Positions 11,294 to 26,200 are shown, numbered from the stretch's first letter. The stretch: DNA of 64,000 bases from Flavobacteriales bacterium (GCA_021741155.1 JAIOYP010000005.1:46668-110667); one strand, 5' to 3'. The notes: generated from the sequence alone by a model not told the origin. Translations and numbers: made by a program.

Positions 11294-11367
11294 GGGCCTA
11301 TAGCTCAGTTGGTTAGAGCACCTGACTCATAATCAGGGGGTCGCAGGATCATGCCCTGCTGGGCCCA
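11294..11367 (+). tRNA. tRNA with CAT anticodon (probably Ile2/lysidine type rather than Met)
   Basis: GGGCCTATAGCTCAGTTGGTTAGAGCACCTGACTCATAATCAGGGGGTCGCAGGATCATGCCCTGCTGGGCCCA folds as a cloverleaf; atypical T-loop ATCATGC. Confidence 0.92.
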
Positions 11368-11369
11368 CA
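11323..11369 (+). repeat. att direct repeat (left copy, 47 bp, 3' part of the tRNA)
   Basis: Identical to 20037-20083. Confidence 0.97.
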
Positions 11370-11480
11370 TTGAAAATCAAGGAGTTACGTCATTTTTTGA
11401 TGTGACTCCTTTTTTCATTTGCAAGTAATTTGCAAGCAAACGGCCTTCAACCGTAACAAATAGGAGTGAATCGGGGTTCG

Positions 11481-12356
11481 TCACTCAACTTTCACTGGTA
11501 GGGTGTTCGGAAATCGAACGCCTTGAAGGATTTTCCCTGCTCCACCGATCGGAATGACGGCCGTTATCATAACCACACTACCAACAAGCGAAGTAACACC
11601 ACCAGCCACAACTAAACCTGTCTGCACCTTTTCATCTTTGGCAAAATATCCTCCTGTTGCCAAGGCACCGCCCAAGAGGCTCAGGAAAAAACCGACACCA
11701 AATGTTTTCCTCGCATTCTGGAGTTGAAGACCAGCGAAGTTGATGTCCTTTTCAATCGTTTTAAATTCAGTCAAATCGACAACCAGATTTTTCGAATCTT
11801 TAAGCACAACCGGATTTTCTTTTACCGCCTCTACCTCTTTGAGTACTTCGGTGGTATCGGTTGTTCCCTTCGCTGATGAAAGCCTCAATTCAATTTCGGT
11901 TGCAGTTTCATAATCTACCAAAGCCCCTTGCTCATTACCCATTGCTTTTTTAGAATCGCCTCTGAATCGGTACCCTTTAGCATAGTTTGGGTCTATCTCG
12001 ATCGACTTACTGAAATCCTCAATCGCCCCTTGATAATCCTTTGAACGCGATTTTAAAAGACCTCTTTTGACATAAGCTTTAACTTGATCAGGGTCTAACT
12101 GAATCGCCTTTGTGTAGTCATCGAATGCCCCGTTCATATCCTGATTAAAAGAACGTTGTCGAGCGTTGCCACGAGCTGTGTAGGCATCTGCGAAATTGGG
12201 GTTTAACTTGATGGCCTTATTGAAGTCTCTTCTCGCTCCGTCAACGTCACCTGAAGAATACTTTTCTATCCCTTTCTCATAATACTCTTCTGCCGTTTGG
12301 GCGTAGCAGATGGAAACGGAAACAAGGGCTATCAATAAAACTATCGTCTTTCTCAT
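11481..12356 (-). CDS. Secreted TPR-repeat protein with C-terminal membrane helices
   Basis: Signal peptide; repeats of the form DFNKAIKLNPNFADAYTARG; two hydrophobic C-terminal segments. Confidence 0.85.
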   Translation of the reverse strand: MRKTIVLLIALVSVSICYAQTAEEYYEKGIEKYSSGDVDGARRDFNKAIKLNPNFADAYTARGNARQRSFNQDMNGAFDDYTKAIQLDPDQVKAYVKRGLLKSRSKDYQGAIEDFSKSIEIDPNYAKGYRFRGDSKKAMGNEQGALVDYETATEIELRLSSAKGTTDTTEVLKEVEAVKENPVVLKDSKNLVVDLTEFKTIEKDINFAGLQLQNARKTFGVGFFLSLLGGALATGGYFAKDEKVQTGLVVAGGVTSLVGSVVMITAVIPIGGAGKILQGVRFPNTLPVKVE

Positions 12357-12745
12357 TTGGGTTGTTTTAGGTATTCACGGAATTTGTCAATCTCACATCC
12401 TGCCCGTGCGCGTGCGCGTAATTTTGCAGCAGGAAATCACGGCCTTTCTGTTGAATTGTAGGCCACGGAAAGGGAATAACGTTGATTATCAGCATATTGT
12501 CCTCTGTGTGTTTTGTGTTCGAGTGGAGATAAAGCTGAACGCATTTCCAATAGACCTCAAACCCTGCCGTGTACAATAGCCCCCAAGGCAACACGCTCGC
12601 GTGAATGGATAGGAATTGAGGCTGAAAATCTATTTCGCACCGATTCTGAGAGGCTCCCCGAAGCGGATAAAGGGACCGGGGGCATATTCCGACAACGATC
12701 GGTTTTGAATAAAAAGGGTATCTAATACGCGCATCGATAAGCATG

Positions 12746-13132
12746 CTACTCGTCTATTTGAACTTCATAGGTCTTTCCTTCTTCACCATAGATAGTGGCG
12801 TTTCCTGATTCATCCAGTTCAGCGGATTGAATGTGGTCGCTGTCCAGATAGCCGCCACTTTCAAAATAGATGGTAGTTACCTCATTGTTCTCAACCTCTA
12901 CTTCTAAGGTGTACGTGGCTGAATGCCCTGTTTCGGAGTTGTTGTAATAGACCGTTGCCGCATGTGTGCCGTCCTCAAATACTTCGCTTGCCTCTTCTTT
13001 CTCAGCGTAGGTTTCTGTGCTTATCTCAAAATCGGTTGTAGCTGCTTCGGGGCTGCTTTCCTGCTCTTGGCCTGAACCACAGGCTTGGAGCATCAGGGCT
13101 AATGGCAGAAGTAAAAACACAATGCGTTTCAT
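12746..13132 (-). CDS. Acidic lipoprotein, hypothetical
   Basis: LQAC lipobox; Glu/Thr-rich. Confidence 0.75.
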   Translation of the reverse strand: MKRIVFLLLPLALMLQACGSGQEQESSPEAATTDFEISTETYAEKEEASEVFEDGTHAATVYYNNSETGHSATYTLEVEVENNEVTTIYFESGGYLDSDHIQSAELDESGNATIYGEEGKTYEVQIDE

Positions 13133-13139
13133 GAGTTGA

Positions 13140-13748
13140 TTAGTTACAATACTCTCTAATTAGTTCATAAGCGTCTTCATCTCCGAGTTCACCAGCTTTA
13201 GATAAATCCAAACATCCGCTATCTTTTTGTCCTAATATTAGTTTAGAACATCCTCTATTGTAGTAAGCATTTACATTACTAGCATTAAGCTCAATAGCTT
13301 TACTGTAATCTGCAATAGCTCCTCTGTGATCTTCTAACCCGCCTTTAGAATTCCCTCTATTGTTGTAAGCATCTGTATGACTAGGATAAAGCTCTATCGC
13401 TTTACTGTAATCTGCTATAGCTCCTCTGTGGTCTCCTAATTTGCTTTTAGAAACGCCTCTATTGTTGTAAAAATCTGCATCTCTAGCATAAAGCTCTATG
13501 GCTTTACTAAAATCAGCTATTGCTCCTCTGTGGTCTTCTAAAGCGGCTTTAGCAATTCCTCTATTGTGGTAATTCCCTGCATGACTAGGACCAAGGTCAA
13601 TAGCCTTGCTAATATCGGCTATTGCACCTCTATAATCTCCAAGATCAGCTTTTGACGCCCCTCTTTTGGAATATTCTTCTGCCGTTTGTCCATAGCATAT
13701 GGAGACGGAAACAAGAGTAATAAACGTAGCAAGTATGATTCTCAGCAT
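13140..13748 (-). CDS. Secreted TPR-repeat protein
   Basis: Four 34-aa repeats (D[HY]RGAIAD.SKAI.L) plus a GCLDLSKAGELG cap; signal peptide. Confidence 0.9.
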   Translation of the reverse strand: MLRIILATFITLVSVSICYGQTAEEYSKRGASKADLGDYRGAIADISKAIDLGPSHAGNYHNRGIAKAALEDHRGAIADFSKAIELYARDADFYNNRGVSKSKLGDHRGAIADYSKAIELYPSHTDAYNNRGNSKGGLEDHRGAIADYSKAIELNASNVNAYYNRGCSKLILGQKDSGCLDLSKAGELGDEDAYELIREYCN

Positions 13749-13780
13749 CGCGATAGGTTATTCATGTGTAGGTGTCCGGT

Positions 13781-14047
13781 TCAATCCTCATGTCCGCAAA
13801 GCGTTCTTCCGTAGGTGTTTTGAGCATCGTAAAGCGAAACTGTCTTTATCTCATGGGTGCAGTTCTTCAATGCAAAGCAATTCTTATCCTTGTGGTAAGC
13901 CTTGCTGCTTTTGCTATCGCATATATAGACGGCTGAAACTTCTACTGATTCGGTAGAAATGCTAATCAAAACAAACAGCATAATCAAACTGTGTAAGGCA
14001 ATAGACTTGAATTGCATTGCTTTTGAAATTTTCATGGGCTTTCTCAC
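13781..14047 (-). CDS. Small exported protein with a Cys/His putative metal-binding motif
   Basis: VYIC...YH....C....C...LC pattern after a hydrophobic segment. Confidence 0.7.
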   Translation of the reverse strand: MRKPMKISKAMQFKSIALHSLIMLFVLISISTESVEVSAVYICDSKSSKAYHKDKNCFALKNCTHEIKTVSLYDAQNTYGRTLCGHED

Positions 14048-14364
14048 TCACTAGGTTCTTGAGTTTCTTCGTTACTCTTAGAGCGTACCTCTTGTAGCTT
14101 TGCTTGATGGTCGAATAGGAATGAGCCATAGTACGCCTCTTCACCAAATCTCCCGTGGATCTTGGTCTTAGATATACCTGTGAATAACGATTCACCGGTT
14201 CTTGTGTCAGTAATAATTACCGCACCGTCTTTTGTAACACTTGTCGCATATCTACCATTACTTGCGTAACAGCTCAGTTGATAGCCGATGAAAGAGAGTA
14301 TTGCGATAACCGCTAATTTGAAAATGGTATCAGTAATCAGTTTTGAGGAGGTATTCGTTTCCAT
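14044..14364 (-). CDS. Hypothetical membrane-anchored protein
   Basis: N-terminal hydrophobic helix; overlaps both neighbours in an operon-like arrangement. Confidence 0.6.
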   Translation of the reverse strand: METNTSSKLITDTIFKLAVIAILSFIGYQLSCYASNGRYATSVTKDGAVIITDTRTGESLFTGISKTKIHGRFGEEAYYGSFLFDHQAKLQEVRSKSNEETQEPSE

Positions 14365-15019
14365 TGAAAATAGAATTAGGTTTATATCTGATGTAGGTTG
14401 TAAAATCCACTAGCTCACCACGTAAAAACAGGGATGAGTATTCCTCTTTATGGATGCTAACATCGACATCAGCATCTTCACAATTATCATATACATGTAC
14501 GTAGTCAACCTCGTCCTGAAACCTCATCATCTTGGATGACTGAATGCCAGAAGGTTTGATTATAAAACAGCCTTGTTCAAACACTGACACTTTGGGAAAA
14601 TCGTTCTGTCTTTCTTTTAGCATTAGCGAATCCACAGTAATCGCGCAGTAAACCCCTTCTGAGTATGTGTTACTTGGAGAAATGTAATCGTTCATTACCT
14701 TAATGATATAAGCATCTCCGTGTTTAACTATATCATCCACTTGCCCAGTTATTGCTAAAAACCTGGTTGTATCGAGTTTCTCCTGTAACTGATACAAATA
14801 GTTGATTGTAGTATCTTCCAAGCCTATTGCACCATACAATTCCATTAACCTAGCTTCTTCTAGGTCGTTCAATGAGTCTATTTGCGCCCGAGTGAGTTCA
14901 ACTTTCTCAGTTGATTCATCGATCTCAACTTCATTTTCATTACTACCAGTTTCTTGATGGGAACAGGCGATGTTCAAAGTCAACATAAGTATAGTTGCAA
15001 TCAGTAGGTGTGTTTTCAT
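14330..15019 (-). CDS. Hypothetical lipoprotein
   Basis: NIAC lipobox; 229-aa ORF. Confidence 0.7.
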   Translation of the reverse strand: MKTHLLIATILMLTLNIACSHQETGSNENEVEIDESTEKVELTRAQIDSLNDLEEARLMELYGAIGLEDTTINYLYQLQEKLDTTRFLAITGQVDDIVKHGDAYIIKVMNDYISPSNTYSEGVYCAITVDSLMLKERQNDFPKVSVFEQGCFIIKPSGIQSSKMMRFQDEVDYVHVYDNCEDADVDVSIHKEEYSSLFLRGELVDFTTYIRYKPNSIFNGNEYLLKTDY

Positions 15020-15106
15020 GTCTAAGTGCTAATTGAATTCGAAACCTAACTAAAACAATTCAATTTGAGTGGATTAAAGTAACACGCAATGTTCAAAGCT
15101 ATAAAT

Positions 15107-15126
15107 TAGACCGATACCTCGGTCTA
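15107..15126. promoter_or_regulatory. Palindromic operator candidate upstream of the XRE regulator
   Basis: TAGACCGA-tacc-TCGGTCTA perfect 8-bp inverted repeat between divergent genes. Confidence 0.55.
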
Positions 15127-15158
15127 TTGGTGTGCGATAAGCTTCGGACTTTGCCGCT

Positions 15159-15386
15159 ATGGGTCAGATCAGGGATGAGGCTTACTTGCAGCGGTTCGGG
15201 TTTCATGTTCGGAAACTACGTACGGAAAAGCAACTGTCTCAATACCAATTGGCCGACCTTGCCAATGTTAGCCGTAGTCAGATCATGGGTATTGAGAACG
15301 GAACTATAAACCCAACGCTTTGCACCCTTAAAGCGGTGGCCGATGGTTTGAGCATACCGTTAGCCGAACTGGTGGAGGTTGGTTAA
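15159..15386 (+). CDS. XRE-family HTH transcriptional regulator
   Basis: [29 protein letters not shown]. Confidence 0.9.
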
Positions 15387-15898
15387 TCCTTGTCCGTTTG
15401 TTTAAAGCCGATCTGTTTCCTTGATTTCAGTTCCTGCGCCCGTTTTTCGCCCTCCATCAGGTAGCCGATGGCCTCAAAGATGTCGTTGAACTGCCTGTCG
15501 TAGCGTTGCTCCAATTCTTTCAGTTGGCGTGTGAGTTCGGTATGTGAAAGGGCAAACTGCCGCATGAGAACAAACGCACGCATGATGGCGATATTGACAC
15601 GGATGGCCTTTTCGCTGTTCAGTACGCTTGAAAGCATGGAAACACCTTGCTCGGTGAATGCGTAGGGCGGTGTGCGTCTTCCTCCCCAACTTGACATCAC
15701 AGATCGTGATTTCAAGTCTGACCATTCGTCTGCATCCAGTTGGAACATGAAGTCTTCCGGAAACCGCTGCAAGTTCCGTTTCACAGCCTGATTGAGCGTC
15801 CTTGTTTCCACCTCATACAATTCGGCAAGGTCGAAATCTAACATCACCTGTTGCTCCCGTATGGAGTGTATTCTACTGCGTATGATTTCGAGTTCCAT
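15383..15898 (-). CDS. ORF6N-domain DNA-binding protein
   Basis: [33 protein letters not shown] and [15 protein letters not shown] motifs. Confidence 0.92.
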
Positions 15899-15956
15899 TT
15901 TTGACGTACTACTGTGGTTTGCAAACATAATTATCCTGTGCTTTGGGTTTGTGGTT

Positions 15957-17165
15957 TCAATAAGGGTCGTTCACGTCCATGCCCAAAGCATCGAACAGTT
16001 GTTCTCTTGTGAGACTATCTAAACCGCTTGACCGAGAAGCAGGGAATTTCCCACACTTGGATAAACTATGCAAATTCCCTGTTTCCTCCTTTTGAGGTTG
16101 GGAATGCACCCCTATGTAAATTCCCTGATTCGGGTCATTCTGTGGCCTATGTTCGGATATTGAGGGGGGTGTGAAAATTCCCGCTTTTTCGGAGCTTTCT
16201 GTAGTGAATTTGCGGAGGGGTTGCAGCTTGGCCGCCATTGCCTCCGAAATCTGTTGTTTTAGGTCGGAGTGTTGGGCTTGGAACTTTTCGGCCCTCTCCC
16301 ATTCCTGCCTGAATTTGTTCTTGGGAACTATCCCTTCAGTTTGCGTCTCTTTGAGGTGTTTCCAAAACTTGGGGTTTGACCATTGGAGTATTTTCTCCCT
16401 TTGCTTGGGCTTGAACTCATCCAACCTCTGCAAAAGGCTATTGTCGAAAAATAGGGTGTCTTCGTTCCACATGTCCAGCACCATGTCGGCCAGCAGTATG
16501 AGGCAGAACGGATTGTGGAGGTCTGAGAGGTAGCGGATGCCTGTTCTCTTGAAGCTTCTTGACAAGCGGTTCTTCTTCTCAATTCGCAATGTATTAGCAT
16601 ACTGTGGAAGGTTGCGAAAATGCTTTCCCTTGTCGTAGTAGGCAGAAAAGTAGCCGCCATTGTCTGCCCCTCTGAAATCGCCTTCGGTCATTTGCATATC
16701 TCGCACAAGGTGATTCCCTTGCCAAATGATGCTATCAAGAATCAATTGAACACGCATATCGTGAAGGTTTAGCCCCGTTTCGAGGCCTTCTAATCGACTT
16801 GTTCTGAGGCACAGCCCAAATTCCGTCTCCAGCCTGTAAAGGACAAACAGAAGCATTCGGTAGGTGAAATCGTTTGCATTATGTAGCCCTTTGTTAGCGA
16901 AACGGTGAAGACTGCCTCTGATTATCCACCTCGTTTCTCCTTGCAGAATGAAACGCAGCCCTTGAAACTGACCGAACCATTTACCAACCTCTTCACTATC
17001 AGGCGGAGCAGTACGGGAAAATTTAAGGTCCGGGTGTTCCCACAAAGGGCGTTCCCCTGGTCTGAAACTTGCGACTATCCGCACCCCGTCAACGGTTACA
17101 ACCGCATCCAATAGCTTATCTTCGCCCTGTTCCCCAACAGAAGCGGTAGGTATGTGCGGTTGCAT
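15957..17165 (-). CDS. Putative Rep_trans/phage gene II-like rolling-circle replication initiator or relaxase
   Basis: GSLHRF...HNANDF, LETGLN, YYDK and LRIEK motifs; lies directly downstream of the excisionase. Confidence 0.6.
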
Positions 17166-17167
17166 GC

Positions 17168-17536
17168 TTACCGCTTTTTCCTTTTCACCGATTGGCGAAG
17201 CAGTTCATTGGCCTCTTGCTCTATTGCCTCCTGTTGTTCGGCTGCTGTGGGGGTGTAATTGCCTTTCAGCATGGCCTCTACGTCCGAACGTTTGAAAAGG
17301 AGCTTGCGGCCTACCTTGCTGGAGGCTATGCGGCCTTGGTGCTTCCAATTGTAGATGGTGCCTTCCGTAACGGTGTTGCGGAGTATTGCCCTTGCCTCTT
17401 TCAACGTGACATAATCGGGTAATTGTTGAGGTGGTTCGCTTGCCGCTGCAAGTCTGCGTTCTATGCCTTCCACCTTGGCCAATAGTTGGCCGATCGCGTG
17501 GGGCAAATTGTCGAATGTGATTTGGTTTGATTGCAT
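17168..17536 (-). CDS. Excisionase-like HTH_17 DNA-binding protein
   Basis: ITFDNLP...TIYNW...KVGRKLLFKRSDV, typical of Bacteroidetes element Xis proteins. Confidence 0.85.
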   Translation of the reverse strand: MQSNQITFDNLPHAIGQLLAKVEGIERRLAAASEPPQQLPDYVTLKEARAILRNTVTEGTIYNWKHQGRIASSKVGRKLLFKRSDVEAMLKGNYTPTAAEQQEAIEQEANELLRQSVKRKKR

Positions 17537-17611
17537 TGCTCTCGTTGTTGATTCGAGCGCAAAGGTTCACGGGGGCTAATCCGTGAAAGGGGTTGCAAGG
17601 GGTTGCAATCT

Positions 17612-18640
17612 TTACTTCACTGCATCTAAGTACATCCTATTCCAGTTACTTAGGTCTGTTTCGGCCTCGTTTTTTTCTTTCCCCTTAAGATTGGGGATAA
17701 TCACCCTAACGTCTTCAAGTATCGCCTTCATGGCTTTGGGCGATTTTGTGTCGCTCTCCTTGTACTTGTCCACTTCGCCATTGAAGGCCGATTCACGGTC
17801 TTTAGCCCTCCGTAGCTTGTCGAATTTAGTGTACAACTGTTGGCCTGATGTCGCGCTTGTCAGACCGCATAGGGTTACAGCAAAGTTGTCCGCTTTCTTA
17901 TCGCGGTCTGTCCGTGGATCCATAATTCCAGCGTTTTGATATGCCAATAGATACGCGGCCTGTCGCAGGGTCAATATGGAAGACTCGTTTACTCCTGCTC
18001 CGTCTCCGCTCTCTTGAAGTGGTGTAGATGTGTCCGCCTTGAGTAACCCTTCCTCTATCGTAACACATCCTTCGCTTACCTCTTTCAAAAAGTCCATCCA
18101 TTGGACGGCAATAGGAAGCCTATTTACTGAATTTCCGAACGTATCCTTAAAATTTTGATGCTCTATCTCTGCGAAGTTTCTTAGCGATAAGGTCTCATTG
18201 AACTCCTGTACCTTTTTGAACTTGATCCACAGCAACTCCTCCAGTTTTGACTGTTCAGTAGATTCTACCGTATCCAATAATTCCCATCTCTCCTCAGATT
18301 TGGGTAATGGACCGCCATTCCAACGCGCGCTTTGTCTCAAGGTCTCGGTACCGTCATGGAGCGAAAGAACTGTAAATGCCATCATAGGACGCATTGCCAA
18401 AAATCCTGTTCTGTTCTTGTACGTTGAGCGGGACAACTTCTCTAAATCAGTACTGTGCCTGAAAATCTGAATCTCAAGCGATGGATAATCAAAGTAACTG
18501 ACTAAGCCATTATCTCTTCTCCATTCATCATGGTTTTTGCTGGAGAAATCAGATGGCAATCGATAGTAATCTTTGCCTCTGAAACTGTAATCCGGTTTTA
18601 GAGAATTTCCTTTTGAATCCTCGGGGTCTTGCTGTTCCAT
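17612..18640 (-). CDS. Hypothetical protein between integrase and excisionase
   Basis: 342-aa ORF; no family recognised. Confidence 0.7.
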   Translation of the reverse strand: MEQQDPEDSKGNSLKPDYSFRGKDYYRLPSDFSSKNHDEWRRDNGLVSYFDYPSLEIQIFRHSTDLEKLSRSTYKNRTGFLAMRPMMAFTVLSLHDGTETLRQSARWNGGPLPKSEERWELLDTVESTEQSKLEELLWIKFKKVQEFNETLSLRNFAEIEHQNFKDTFGNSVNRLPIAVQWMDFLKEVSEGCVTIEEGLLKADTSTPLQESGDGAGVNESSILTLRQAAYLLAYQNAGIMDPRTDRDKKADNFAVTLCGLTSATSGQQLYTKFDKLRRAKDRESAFNGEVDKYKESDTKSPKAMKAILEDVRVIIPNLKGKEKNEAETDLSNWNRMYLDAVK

Positions 18641-18655
18641 TATCCTTGCCTTGGC

Positions 18656-19891
18656 CTAAAAGTCCATTACTGCCTGTGCCATTTTCTTCTTGGCTTCATC
18701 GCCAAACCCAGCGAAGTAATTGAGGGTTGTTTTCATGTCACTATGATCAAGGCTTTCACGCATAAATTCCATGCTTGCGCCTTTCAATACAGCAATGGTG
18801 GCAAAGGAATGGCGTGCCCAATATGTTGAAACTACCTGCAACTTGTTGGCCGTGCATAGCTTTTCCAAGTGTTGGTTCACATAGCGGGTAAACCCTTTAA
18901 CCGCCCTGTGTTGCTGTTCTGCGTCCATGCCCTCATCCACTATCGGGAACACGTAGGGCGATTTGGCAGGCGGGTTTCCGTGCCTCTTAATGATGTCGTG
19001 ATGTGTGTCATTCAGAAACACAGTTACGGGTGTCCGTCCGTCCTTCTTGGTACGCTTGGTCTTTTCGCGAAGGAATGTCAATCTGTCGGCCTCCAATTGT
19101 TCCCAACGCAATAGGACAATGTCTTTCATGTTCATGCCATTGCTTGCAAAGCTGAAAAAGAAGAAATCCCTCGCCCGTGCCTGTTCATCGGTTGTTGGTT
19201 TGGCATCCATCAGTTGCCTTAGCTGTGCGCCTGAAAGTGCCTTCTTGGTGTTCTTAGACGCAGGTACAACGTATTTCCTTCGACCGAAAGGATAATGGTC
19301 GGGATTGACAAGCTTGTCAGCAATTGCATCATTGAAGATTGCTCTAAGCGGTCGCAAATAAATGCCCACGGTGGTCAGGCTCCGGCCATTGTTTGCCATG
19401 TAGGTTTCAAAGTTCTCAAGGAACTGCGGAGTGATTGCGCTGAACTGCAATGTGCTTTTTCCCGAAAACGCTTGTAGAGCCTTGGCTGAACATTGGTAAG
19501 AATCGGCTGTCCCTATCCGTTTGGCTGCTTTGAGTTTGGCTATGCGCTGGTCATAGTGCCAAAAAACATTCTGTGCCTCTCCTACGGGCATCAGGGCCTT
19601 GCGTTCGTATGCCTCAAAAGTGAAGTGTTCCAATGTGTCAACTGTTGCCTGTGCCTCGGTCTGTAAAGCTTGCAACCGCTGTTTCAAAGGCTGAAATTCC
19701 CTTCGGGGTTTCACCGTCTCCCATGCTGAATGAAAGTCCCGTTCTGAAAGACTAAGTTTAGTTCCGTAGAACTTACCCTCTTTCGTCATGCTGTCCCATA
19801 CATACAATTTCAAAGGAAAGGTTCCGTCCTTTTTCTGCCTCCGTCTGTCCAATGTAACGGATACCGTAGCGGTTGCCTGTCTGTTGCTCAT
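18656..19891 (-). CDS. Tyrosine recombinase/integrase (arm-binding + SAM-like + catalytic domains)
   Basis: LDRRRQKKDGTFPLKL arm domain; GMNMKDI, ARHSFAT and LDHSDMKTTLNY motifs. Confidence 0.95.
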   Translation of the reverse strand: MSNRQATATVSVTLDRRRQKKDGTFPLKLYVWDSMTKEGKFYGTKLSLSERDFHSAWETVKPRREFQPLKQRLQALQTEAQATVDTLEHFTFEAYERKALMPVGEAQNVFWHYDQRIAKLKAAKRIGTADSYQCSAKALQAFSGKSTLQFSAITPQFLENFETYMANNGRSLTTVGIYLRPLRAIFNDAIADKLVNPDHYPFGRRKYVVPASKNTKKALSGAQLRQLMDAKPTTDEQARARDFFFFSFASNGMNMKDIVLLRWEQLEADRLTFLREKTKRTKKDGRTPVTVFLNDTHHDIIKRHGNPPAKSPYVFPIVDEGMDAEQQHRAVKGFTRYVNQHLEKLCTANKLQVVSTYWARHSFATIAVLKGASMEFMRESLDHSDMKTTLNYFAGFGDEAKKKMAQAVMDF

Positions 19892-20036
19892 GTTCTTAGC
19901 TTGCAAGTGATTTGCAAGTAAAAGTAATCTATTTGCAAGTAACTGCATTAAGTCAAATGAAGTTATTTTCTTTGCAAAGTCCAATAAACAAAGGGGTTCG
20001 TGAGGCTTTCAGTTCTGAAAATGTAATTAAAGATTA

Positions 20037-20083
20037 TGACTCATAATCAGGGGGTCGCAGGATCATGCCCTGCTGGGCCCACA
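20037..20083 (+). repeat. att direct repeat (right copy), displaced tRNA 3' half
   Basis: Identical to 11323-11369; followed by terminator aaaaaccatctc...gaggtggttttt. Confidence 0.97.
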
Positions 20084-23269: not shown

Positions 23270-26200
23270 ATGTATTTGCTTAAGTCTTTTATCGGAGGAT
23301 TGACCTTGACTTTATTGATTACCGCTTCCGTGTTCGGGCAGGAATGCGGAATCATCTATGTGTCTCCAAGTGGCGCAGGCTCCGGAACAACAGGAACGCG
23401 TGCCAATCCAGCTAGTCTGAGTCACGGGCTTAGTTTGGTAAATGTTACGAATAATGTGCTTTGGCTTGCTGCTGGCTCTTATACAATTACCGATTATTTA
23501 TCTATCCCGAACAACGTTACTATTGAAGGCGGATTTAATGGAGCTTGGATTAAAAGCAATTCAACTCCTTCAATAATCAGTCGTACTGCTGCCAATCCGT
23601 TACCAAATCCAGCAAATGCCCTGGTTGGATTGGCTGGATTGAACGCGTCTGGTTTTCGATTACAAGACCTTACTATCGATGTGGCCGCAGCACCATCAGC
23701 AGGTATTTCTGTTTACGGCATTTATCTAGCTTCTTGTTCCAATTACTCTATTGTTCGCTGCGTTGTGAACACGGGAAATGGTGGAGCTGGGCTAACTGGA
23801 ACTACTGGGGCGCCAGGTGTTGCAGGTGGAAACGGAGCCAATGGCCAGCCAGGAGCCGATGAGCCGAACCTCCCGCAAGGTGGCGCTGGTGGAATTGGAG
23901 CAGCCGGAAACAATGGTGGTAACGGTCAAACTGGAGGTCGACATTCCGGAGGCACAAACCCAGGCCCTGGGCTACCAGGTTCTCCTGCCAATTGCGGAGG
24001 TTCAGGTGGCGCAACGGGCTCGGGACCTCAAAACTCATTTTTCAATCAGACCCCTTCATGCGGCAGCGTCACTTCTGGTCAGAGCGGAACAGCTGGCGGT
24101 GTAGGAATTGCTGGGGCAGCAGGTACAATTGGTGCTCAAGGAACATACATGACAGGCTATTTTGTGCCGGGGCCAGCAGGTGGCAACGGGACTCAAGGTG
24201 GTCCTGGTTGCGGGGGCGGTGGTGGAGGTGGCGGTGGTGGCCGTCAATTAGGGGGTTCAGATAACTATGGTGCAGGAGGTGGTGGCGGTGGTGCTGGAGG
24301 TCAAGGCGGTTTTGGCGGCATTGGTGGCACAGGCGGTGGTGGTTCGTTCGCTGTATTTAGTTGGAACAATGGTGCTGGAGGGAATGTAACCGACTGCGCT
24401 CTTAATCCTGGTGCTGGTGGTCTGGGCGGAGTTGGAGGTGTTGGTGGTGCTGGTGGTACTGGTGGTACTGGTGGTCAAGGAGGTACTGCTGGCGCATGTG
24501 GAAATAGTTTTGGCGGAAACGGTGGAGCTGGAGGTGCTGGTGGGCCGGGTGGTTTGGGCGGATCAGGAGCTACAGGACCAAGTTTACCACTAGCCGAACA
24601 AGGAGGCGGAATCCCGGTTGCTGCTTCGAATATCACTTCTGTTCCGGGCAATCCTCCCGTGATAAATGTTGATAATTATGGATGCACAAACTCTGACATC
24701 TCGTTCTCAGCAACTGGCGGAAACGGAGCTTGGAACTTCGGTACTGGAGCGAACCCTCAGACCGCTAATGGAAACGGACCACATGCAGTTACGTTTCCAA
24801 CTACTGGACGAAGAACCATCACTTACGCAGGAACCACCTTCACCGATTTCATCGGCATTTTTAATAGCGGGCCAACGCTTCCAACAATTTCACCGGCAAA
24901 TCCAACGGTCGATGCGGGTTGTCCAAATCAATTCTCAACCACGTTAGTTGGAAGTCAATATGATTGGGATTTCGGTCCCGTGGCATCACCTCCGACCCAA
25001 TCTGGTCCAGCAGTAACCACAACTTCAGATGTCTATTTCAGCACTCCCGGAACGTATTGGATTAAAGTAACTGTACTTACTGCTTGCTGCGGGCCGGTAA
25101 CGGATTCAACACAAGTAACGGTGCAAGCGAATGTTTATGATATAACGTTGACTGCAAGCGGCACATCTATTTGCGAGGGTGACCCGATTGTTTTCACCGC
25201 TACGCCTCCAACGTATGATAATTACGAATTCTTCATTGATGGCGTTTCCGTTCAGAATGGTGCGCTGCCTGTTTATACAAGTTCAACTATTCAGCAAGGA
25301 GACAGCATTTATGTGGAGGCATTTGTGGGAAGCTGCTTTGCCAATCCAAGCGATACGATTGTCCCTACGGTAAATCCTGTTCCAACGGTAACGCTTACTT
25401 CAAGCGACCCAGACAACGAAATCTGTCAAGGAGAGACAGTCACATTTACGGCCACGCCTGCTGGGTTGGATTCGTATCAGTTCTTCAACGGCTCAACTTC
25501 TATGCAGAATGGTGCGAGCAATATCCTTTTCGGAACCGTTCCGGTCAATAACAGCATAACCGTGGTGGCTACGGATAATGGTTGTTCGAGCCCTCCAAGC
25601 GCAGCCATTGTGACCTTAGTCAACCCGATTCCGTTGGTCACTTTGACCAGTTCTGATGCGGACAATATGATTTGCGATGGTGACAATGTCATCTTTACTG
25701 CCTTGCCACTTGGTCTGGCTGGTTATCAATTCTTTGAAGGTGTGGCGGCCATTCAATCTGGCATTGCTAACGTTTACCAAACAAGCGCATTGGTTTCTGG
25801 TACCAACGTTTTTGTTATTGGAACCAGTCAGGCGGGTTGCGTGGGCGGTCAGAGCAATATCATAACGACTACTGTAAATCCTTATCCAACGGTTACGCTG
25901 AGCAGCTCGGACCCGAACAACGAAATCTGCGAAGGCGAGTCCATCACATTCACGGCCGCCCCATCAGGTCTTAACAGCTACGAATTCTTTGATAGCGCCA
26001 CATCTGTTCAGAATTCGGCTTCCGCAACATGGACCACAACTGGTCTGATTACTGGAAACAGCGTAACCGTTGAGGCAACACATTTTGGCTGTACGAGTGT
26101 TGCGAGTGCAGCTATCACCACCACGCTAATTGCTTCACCTGTTGTTGATCCAGGAGTTGACTTTGAAAACTGCGTTGATGCTACAGATGTTACTCTAACT

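Follow-up and report, generated by a model that had tools for sequence, protein, structure and literature searches.

The window analysed here is a stretch of 64,000 nucleotides from a Flavobacteriales bacterium (GCA_021741155.1 JAIOYP010000005.1:46668-110667), and it harbors an intact 8.7-kb element of the Bacteroidia (Flavobacteriales) host bin that spans positions 11323-20083 and is inserted in a tRNA gene. The core of the element is composed of an integrase gene (int), an open reading frame (ORF) of 342 amino acids (aa) (ORF342), an excisionase gene (xis) and a gene (rep) for a 402-aa protein predicted to be an initiator of the Rep_trans superfamily (Rep). We regard it as likely that the element leaves the chromosome in circular form and is copied from a palindromic origin at the rep terminus, and as probable that a helper phage spreads it, in the manner of PICMIs and tycheposons; we give this reading as a whole an even chance of being correct. 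It is also possible, though we hold this more tentatively, that the Bacteroidia harbor, across the phylum, minimal phage satellites of a class not yet described, in which one int–ORF–xis chassis has repeatedly alternated between primase/helicase cassettes and a rolling-circle Rep_trans cassette that brings its palindromic origin along at the rep end; the members of this class would pass from one host species to another in a matter of years and exchange cargo, and even protein domains, with sister elements resident in the same host. What is new at this locus is the swap of modules between co-resident elements, the test on an integrase tree, the origin-like palindrome and the near-identical core found in another study.

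Rep has no match in Pfam, PHROGs, NCBIfam, the PDB sequences or plasmid records. A direct search with the protein retrieved five homologues, whose profile matched 2,579 clusters at E ≤ 0.001, and its neighbors in the protein atlas are Bacteroidota clusters in which 10-31% of the members carry PF05144, at a recognition score under the strong threshold. The original prediction for this DNA had likened the protein to Rep_trans and inovirus gene II initiators by three motifs (GSLH.F...HN.NDF, YDK and LR.E), and these are present and conserved as GSLH/HNAND, YYDK and LRIE. The AlphaFold model that had been proposed as a check (pLDDT 85.6) adopts a Rep_trans fold: the six matches of a Foldseek search against the PDB at E ≤ 0.001 are all RepDE (4CWE/4CWC) or the Geobacillus initiator 4CIJ, followed by TBP, and comparison with 4CWC gave a Z score of 11.9 (rmsd 4.3, 232 residues aligned), compared with 6.1 for TBP, the next unrelated entry. 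The named top matches among viral structures are inovirus Reps. An alignment of 149 sequences shows no variation at S85, N96, E129, Y177, K179, R194 and E196 and conservation of D26 in at least 90%, and the catalytic-type motif reads YDK, not YxxK. RepDE uses D46, D142, Y191 and E214 (PMC13107129), and the order of D26, E129, Y177 and E196 in Rep agrees with that arrangement. The two families named for the check, PF02486 and PF05144, are not reached by Rep at the curated cut-off, and 1 of 100 homologues touches each of them, weakly; the family has stayed unannotated because its homologues hardly match these models.

The candidate double-strand origin in the tail of rep (Table 1) is preceded by two more GGGAATTT half-sites (at 16182 and 16125), and GGGAA[AT]TT occurs in four copies within 130 bp on the rep strand, compared with 0.09 per kb genome-wide. 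Most loci of the Rep family contain an inverted repeat of 10-15 bp with an AT-rich centre of 12-14 nt right after the Rep core, and the window palindrome is among the five best of 38 loci as a plain inverted repeat. Scored with a matrix built from nine seeds and set against 551 control windows, 13 of the 29 non-seed loci attain the 99th percentile, and 18 the 95th. In the 26 palindrome sites that were aligned (12 of the 38 loci, which were low-scoring, doubtful or near-duplicate, are omitted), 71% of the cells pair, compared with 51% in shuffled and at most 50% in slid alignments; the covariation is 0.489, compared with 0.204 shuffled and at most 0.24 slid, a figure that leans high because the sites were picked partly for symmetry. 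This arrangement suggests that the palindrome is the origin of Rep and may be nicked there by the protein. Many Reps of the family (L019, L023, L014, L026, L028 and others) have a C-terminal CxxC zinc-ribbon extension and carry the palindrome in the coding linker before it; in the short Reps it lies just past the stop codon.

The att duplication of 47 bp that had been recorded for the element is indeed perfect and equals the 3′ half of the tRNA gene, and TTGCAAGT repeats are located just within both ends of the element, as well as at both ends of a sister element in the same genome. The target tRNA is presumably the lysidine tRNA-Ile2, by tRNA identity rules, since the two other CAT types in the genome look initiator- and elongator-Met-like. 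Its T-loop is unusual, with GGATCATG in place of GGTTCGA, which is not an assembly error, since the congener G021 has identical letters there. The GC content of the element (0.39-0.51) is not distinct from that of the flanks; just outside, at 23500-25000 of the window, it climbs to about 0.55 with a strong skew.

An empty site, which the original prediction had proposed looking for, exists in relatives of the host. The two flanking host genes were detected in 20/21 and 19/21 congeners and lie on one contig in 11 of these, eight of which have an empty site with the genes 215-311 bp apart, and the remaining three have other genes between them, without an integrase or att. G021, whose flanking proteins are 86% identical, was read at base level: it has a single copy of the 47 nt, after which come a hairpin resembling a terminator and then the downstream gene. 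Close relatives of Rep were found in none of the 21 congeners. G020 and G012 carry inserts at this tRNA and G008 has a 29-kb gap; with no integrase or att repeat, these were set aside as not belonging to the family. The G012 insert (L051:1357-10470) encodes two paralogous exported proteins of very large size (1308 and 1719 aa) downstream of the tRNA.

Parts of the element are present in 15 sequencing runs, among which X1 is its probable source and is not counted as independent. In X2, an activated-sludge run of another study, the six listed contigs that cover rep, xis, ORF342 and int show 1 difference from the element in 3,232 bases. One X2 contig joins the element at 15094, preceded by 856 letters unlike it, so that the cargo position holds other DNA; another continues past att into a different terminator that resembles that of G021, the element side not being shown in the contig; and an X6 contig links 12796 to 15101 across 1,237 other letters. 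The same core with different cargo, which had been suggested as a thing to search for, was found both in these runs and in relatives of the family: a near-identical core occurs beside variable cargo in other samples, and the X2 contigs suggest that the core there sits in another host species. X2 and X3 have no cover over the host flanks, which is compatible with another host and is not counted as evidence; X5, with many loose ends and a chimeric look, was set aside.

The second element of the host bin, the sister (Table 1), shares int, xis, the XRE gene and two cargo genes with the window element. In the sister, the place of rep and the ORF6N gene is taken by a 104-aa ORF, a helicase-like gene (AAA_25) and a primase-like gene (Zn-ribbon/DUF6371), between which lie 9-bp repeats, and its cargo comprises four exported genes (TPR, MORN-repeat, small Cys/His protein and lipoprotein). 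The co-residence of the two elements rests on the binning (the bin is 94.7% complete, with 3.85% contamination). The database protein P0157 fuses the N-terminal half of the sister's ORF290 (E 8e-62) to the C-terminal half of the window's ORF342 (E 3e-54); the elements therefore exchange domains. DUF6371 is found in 18 of 150 other genomes, a count that includes G113, whose DNA stayed out of the locus reading. At the 12 DUF6371 loci that were read, the order int–(ORF)–xis–helicase–primase is seen in nine and DUF3987 or DUF5906 in six, and no relaxase was found among the 37 of their 63 neighbors that were scanned. In a rapid maximum-likelihood tree of 35 integrases, eight changes of module type are needed, six of which are forced by branches with support of at least 95; the two types are no more clustered than in shuffles (150/500), and the integrases of the window element and the sister are nearest neighbors. 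The replication module is exchanged on a shared chassis.

A third, larger element of the genome lies at an elongator-type tRNA-Met (L047/L048; G000:C16, about 58900-86200) and carries an integrase, an IS110 remnant, proteins sorted by the type IX secretion system, TPR proteins, VirD4, MobC, a MOBP-type relaxase, which Pfam did detect, a second recombinase and a phage rep O-like gene; near the tRNA there are apparent restriction-modification and NTPase-type defence genes, as read from the sequence.

The Rep profile matches 30 of 400 other Bacteroidia genomes (about 7.5%). About 9 kb on each side were read for 29 of the 30 (one partial match was dropped), and Pfam was run on 192 of the 251 candidate neighbors and on 12 proteins from other loci. 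An integrase gene lies upstream in 25 of the 29 loci, an HTH_17 gene is present in 23 and a tRNA or tmRNA gene occurs within about 9 kb in 19; the common layout is int, a variable ORF of 240-370 aa, HTH_17, an optional ORF of 120-165 aa, rep and then the accessory genes. Three Flavobacterium loci at tRNA-Asn (L004, L005 and L006) have the order ORF–xis–rep–palindrome–int, with larger cargo beyond. The accessory genes of the relatives encode type I, II and III restriction-modification systems, HigBA, a kinase, KAP NTPase, TPR and DUF4468 proteins. Small-terminase (TerS) families follow rep in 2/29 loci (L024 and L032), and DUF5681-like genes, which are putatively TerS-like, occur in 7/29, some at weak scores (L015, L016, L018, L028, L032, L039 and L041), with a related ORF in L026. 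No relaxase, coupling-protein, mating-pore, capsid or Zot family was found among the scanned neighbors of the Rep loci.

The coordinates of the features are collected in Table 1. The ORF calls and family scans bear out the predicted core of co-oriented minus-strand genes (int, ORF342, xis, rep and the ORF6N gene), to which a divergent XRE/HTH_3 gene that had been overlooked has to be added. ORF342, the positional analogue of PICMI iolg, has no family match in Pfam, PHROGs, NCBIfam or PADLOC; three homologues of it were found, and its neighbors in the protein atlas are unnamed Bacteroidota clusters. The ORF6N protein also matches the PADLOC candidate defence system PDC-S05, and two further homologues, 49-53% identical, are encoded elsewhere in the genome (G000:C56:47076-47585 and C1:61043-61516). 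Pfam, PHROGs and NCBIfam detect no capsid, terminase, Zot, relaxase or type IV secretion system family among the 13 element ORFs scanned, in line with the earlier reading that the element has no capsid, terminase, Zot-like ATPase or type IV secretion gene.

Table 1. Features of the integrated element (window positions) and location of the sister element.
Feature	Position	Strand	Basis or remark
Target tRNA, anticodon CAT	11294..11368	+	ARAGORN: tRNA-Met
att core, tRNA-proximal copy, 47 bp	11323..11369	+	repeat search
Candidate arm-type integrase sites, TTGCAAGT repeats	11419..11440	.	putative function
Cargo: TPR protein, 291 aa, N-terminal signal and hydrophobic C-terminal part	11481..12356	-	sister homologue at same position, 78% nt identity over 1466 bp
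Cargo: predicted lipoprotein, 128 aa (LQA-C18, then acidic stretch)	12746..13132	-	
Cargo: TPR protein, 202 aa, with signal; three 102-bp repeats	13140..13748	-	
Cargo: small Cys/His-containing exported protein, 70-88 aa depending on start	13781..14047	-	67% identical sister homologue
Cargo: 106-aa protein, N-terminal hydrophobic anchor	14044..14364	-	no family
Cargo: predicted lipoprotein, 229 aa (NIA-C19, read from sequence)	14330..15019	-	no family
Candidate operator, 8-bp palindrome upstream of XRE gene	15107..15126	.	z -4.19; kept in sister; putative function
XRE/HTH_3 regulator, 75 aa, divergent	15159..15386	+	92% identical in sister
ORF6N antirepressor-like protein, 181 aa	15383..15928	-	PF10543; absent from sister
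Predicted Rep_trans-fold rolling-circle initiator (Rep), 402 aa; D26, E129, Y177, E196	15957..17165	-	low-confidence tail 342-379
Candidate double-strand origin in rep tail, 10-bp inverted repeat, 22-nt spacer	16040..16081	-	z -3.49
HTH_17 excisionase/AlpA-like protein, 122 aa	17168..17536	-	family scans; 64% identical in sister
ORF342, 342 aa, between int and xis	17612..18640	-	N-terminal part variable, C-terminal ~130 aa conserved
Tyrosine integrase, 411 aa from ATG	18656..19891	-	PF00589 and PF13102; 67% identical to sister's
Candidate arm-type sites at int end, TTGCAAGT repeats	19901..19940	.	repeat pair partner 19901-19922
att core, distal copy, 47 bp	20037..20083	+	hairpin and T-run after it resemble displaced tRNA terminator
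Sister element, 9.2 kb, tRNA-Pro(TGG), perfect 45-bp att	L001:3145-12377 (G000:C66)		same TTGCAAGT arm repeats

By a simple hydropathy rule, a hydrophobic N-terminal segment is present in all six cargo ORFs, compared with 1007 of 2500 genome ORFs of at least 150 aa (40%). The claim that all of the cargo has export signals holds for these hydrophobic N-termini, with the reservation that the 106-aa ORF is more anchor-like than provided with a cleaved signal. By contrast, the proposed role of the cargo in receptor masking or superinfection exclusion fares badly: the family scans gave TPR matches or nothing, PADLOC added one weak TPR match and no support for superinfection exclusion, and the cargo of relatives with this core is mostly different. 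The all-exported cargo belongs to this copy and its sister and is not a trait of the family at large, because the accessory genes of the relatives are restriction-modification, toxin-antitoxin, kinase, KAP NTPase and other genes. It is best described as an exchangeable payload, and it looks ordinary. The two TPR cargo genes share a 66-bp stretch, 77% identical (12270-12335 and 13659-13724), which comprises the signal and first residues and could let cargo cassettes recombine; one X2 contig connects these two regions. A 125-aa ORF at 12367-12744 was rejected as probably non-coding: it has neither a family match nor a signal, and its frame is broken in the sister.

In the life cycle that we propose, the repressed element would reside in the 3′ end of the tRNA gene, with the XRE protein as its repressor and ORF6N possibly relieving the repression. 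Int and Xis, perhaps with ORF342, would recombine the att sites through the TTGCAAGT arm sites to form an excised circle; Rep would then nick the loop of the palindrome via Tyr177, and host enzymes would extend the nicked strand. A tailed phage would package the products, using a small terminase that some relatives, and not this copy, would provide, and this helper would take them to a new cell, where Int would restore the tRNA. The description of the element in the original prediction as integrative and plasmid-like, mobilisable or a satellite stands with regard to its integration, the lack of transfer genes of its own, the Rep_trans-fold initiator and the empty site; its supposed purpose of envelope delivery is not supported. 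In the fold of Rep and the empty site, the prediction withstood both of the refuting conditions given with it, although an excised circle was not observed.

A phage helper is favored by the layout, which matches that of PICMIs, by the TerS genes of relatives, by the antirepressor-like ORF6N protein and by the fact that Rep can be swapped for non-relaxase genes. A number of observations weigh against this helper-phage cycle. This copy has neither a TerS nor a capsid gene, a search for three large-terminase families in the host bin (94.7% complete) found none, and DUF5681 is only putatively TerS-like. A single-protein search for Rep in viral contigs found nothing, a search with its alignment gave one distant match, and the alignment gave one weak match among cultured-phage records. 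The equivalence of the residues of Rep and RepDE is putative and is based on their order and conservation. The window palindrome scores 8.1 in the family matrix, under the 95th control percentile of 11.0, because it is one base out of register. No attP/attB or excision joint was found in the Logan contigs of X1-X6, which break at the 47-bp repeat, and X1 gives no sign of amplification, with element unitigs at 13.1-13.7 and flanks at 13.6-17, depth being a poor measure of copy number in these data. Finally, Rep_trans proteins also serve as conjugative relaxases (PMC5704250).

If Rep doubled as a MOBT-type relaxase, the palindrome would be both oriT and origin, and a visiting Bacteroidota integrative and conjugative element (ICE) would supply the coupling protein and mating pore. 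The host bin does contain a VirD4 gene, on the third integrated element with its MOBP-type relaxase, and the int–ORF–xis–primase order recalls that of NBU1, in which a primase-like gene reportedly follows the HTH factor, as would match the layout of the sister. In streptococci, moreover, MobT/Rep_trans proteins are the putative relaxases of integrative mobilisable elements (IMEs), some of which lack a coupling protein (PMC5704250). However, Rep is replaced in relatives by helicase/primase-like pairs that are unable to nick oriT, and no relaxase has been gained in the sister or among the 37 neighbors at the 12 primase loci; MobT helpers rely on TcpA and the FA-type pores of Firmicutes (PMC5704250), TraG/VirB4 is not found in the host bin, and TerS genes adjoin rep in some relatives. 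Such an IME is rather unlikely.

Unlikely, too, is a cycle with no dedicated helper, in which stress would induce excision and replication, replication would only lift the copy number, and transfer would occur by uptake, by general transduction or in membrane vesicles, as has been put forward for tycheposons that carry cargo. Both vesicles and phage particles are enriched in tycheposons (bioRxiv 2020.12.28.424599), TerS is lacking in most family members, the window copy included, and the window cargo is envelope-directed; yet TerS and antirepressor-like genes indicate contact with phages, and PICMIs are mobilised by phages despite having no packaging genes (PMC10803314). That the element is an inovirus prophage or a TLC-like inovirus satellite, with the small membrane proteins as coat proteins, would fit the resemblance of Rep to inovirus gene II/G2P proteins and the presence of small hydrophobic ORFs. 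It is nevertheless very unlikely, in view of the absence of a Zot/pI ATPase from both the element and the host bin and of a cargo that is TPR- or lipoprotein-like, differs between relatives and is partly common to the primase-type sister, which has no single-stranded DNA initiator. Hardly credible is an immobile remnant of a larger element: no circle or amplification is seen in assembled contigs, the only material covered, but the att pair is perfect, the core frames are open, the same compact layout occurs in many genera, and a run of another study, taken in a different habitat, matches the core at all but 1 of 3,232 bases.

An initiator that Pfam does not recognise is present in about 7.5% of the sampled Bacteroidia, in small islands with no known transfer route. 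If these islands are phage satellites, PICMI-like biology would extend to a major gut and aquatic phylum, and rolling-circle replication would be interchangeable with primase-based replication on one satellite chassis; should they be conjugative hitchers, MOBT-type IMEs would exist outside the Firmicutes. The integrase/att and Rep/origin pairs could become genetic tools for Flavobacteriales, and the system lends itself to direct tests through its predicted origin motif, its catalytic Tyr and the pair of sister elements within a single genome.

In the literature covered, in which subscription journals are poorly represented, no description of this Rep element family was found, and the supplements of the VEIME and tycheposon papers may list such Reps. 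The available text of a preprint on oriT-only islands does not mention Rep_trans, and that of the Charybdis preprint proved unrelated. With known Rep_trans initiators (pT181-family RepDE, Geobacillus 4CIJ and inovirus gene II/G2P proteins of PF05144), Rep shares the TBP-like fold, the Tyr and acidic residues and a nearby palindrome; it differs in its identity of only 10-15% and in occurring in chromosomal integrative elements, with no match in plasmid records. The pI/Zot-like morphogenesis ATPase of inoviruses is absent. The MobT/Rep_trans IMEs of Streptococcus are likewise tRNA-integrated, with a tyrosine integrase, a Rep_trans-type protein and no mating pore (PMC5704250), whereas here no TcpA gene is seen, the phylum is another, Rep is swappable with primase/helicase genes and TerS occurs in some relatives. 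NBU1 and NBU2 of Bacteroides share a Bacteroidota tyrosine integrase, an accessory ORF and an HTH directionality factor, but NBUs have an oriT and a MobP relaxase gene, and ICEs mobilise them (PMC5704250); no relaxase is present in the window element or the sister, and no MOBP, MOBV or MOBQ relaxase of the canonical NBU1 type was found in the element or the scanned relatives.

The 10K island of Riemerella anatipestifer is flavobacterial and tRNA-associated, with 53-bp repeats, the order int, ORF, DNA-binding protein and antirepressor, and mostly hypothetical proteins, and PCR showed that it excises spontaneously (PMC6764341); compared by layout, it differs in that its gene table annotates no replication protein. 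Unlike PICIs, cf-PICIs and P4-like satellites, this copy has no TerS, capsid-remodelling or pri-rep genes, TerS being confined to 2/29 relatives. Tycheposons and VEIMEs have variable replication modules, an optional TerS and exchangeable cargo (VEIME size 5-17 kb), and VEIMEs from virions carry no capsid genes and have Flavobacteria among their hosts (bioRxiv 2020.12.28.424599; PMC9618062). The window element has, as far as its genes tell, the tRNA-targeting tyrosine integrase, xis, replication module and variable cargo of this group; it differs in that the available texts name primase/helicase, polymerase or plasmid-type replication genes and no Rep_trans initiator. PICMIs of the Vibrionaceae have the order int–iolg–alpA–up1–prim, of which iolg is needed for excision, and are modelled by PF00589, PF05930/PF12728 and DUF3987/DUF5906 (PMC10803314). 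The two differ in host (Vibrionaceae and Bacteroidia), in the site of integration (next to fis, and here the 3′ end of a tRNA gene) and in the DUF3987/DUF5906 primase, in whose place there is Rep_trans here and which is present in 6 of the 12 primase-type relatives; helper-phage induction and concatemer packaging are PICMI traits and are putative here. The window element nevertheless carries the PF00589 integrase and the AlpA-type regulator (PF12728 in the PICMI model), and it resembles PICMIs in the succession of int, a contiguous variable gene (iolg/icg), AlpA, an optional small gene, a replication gene and an accessory region, with no capsid genes.

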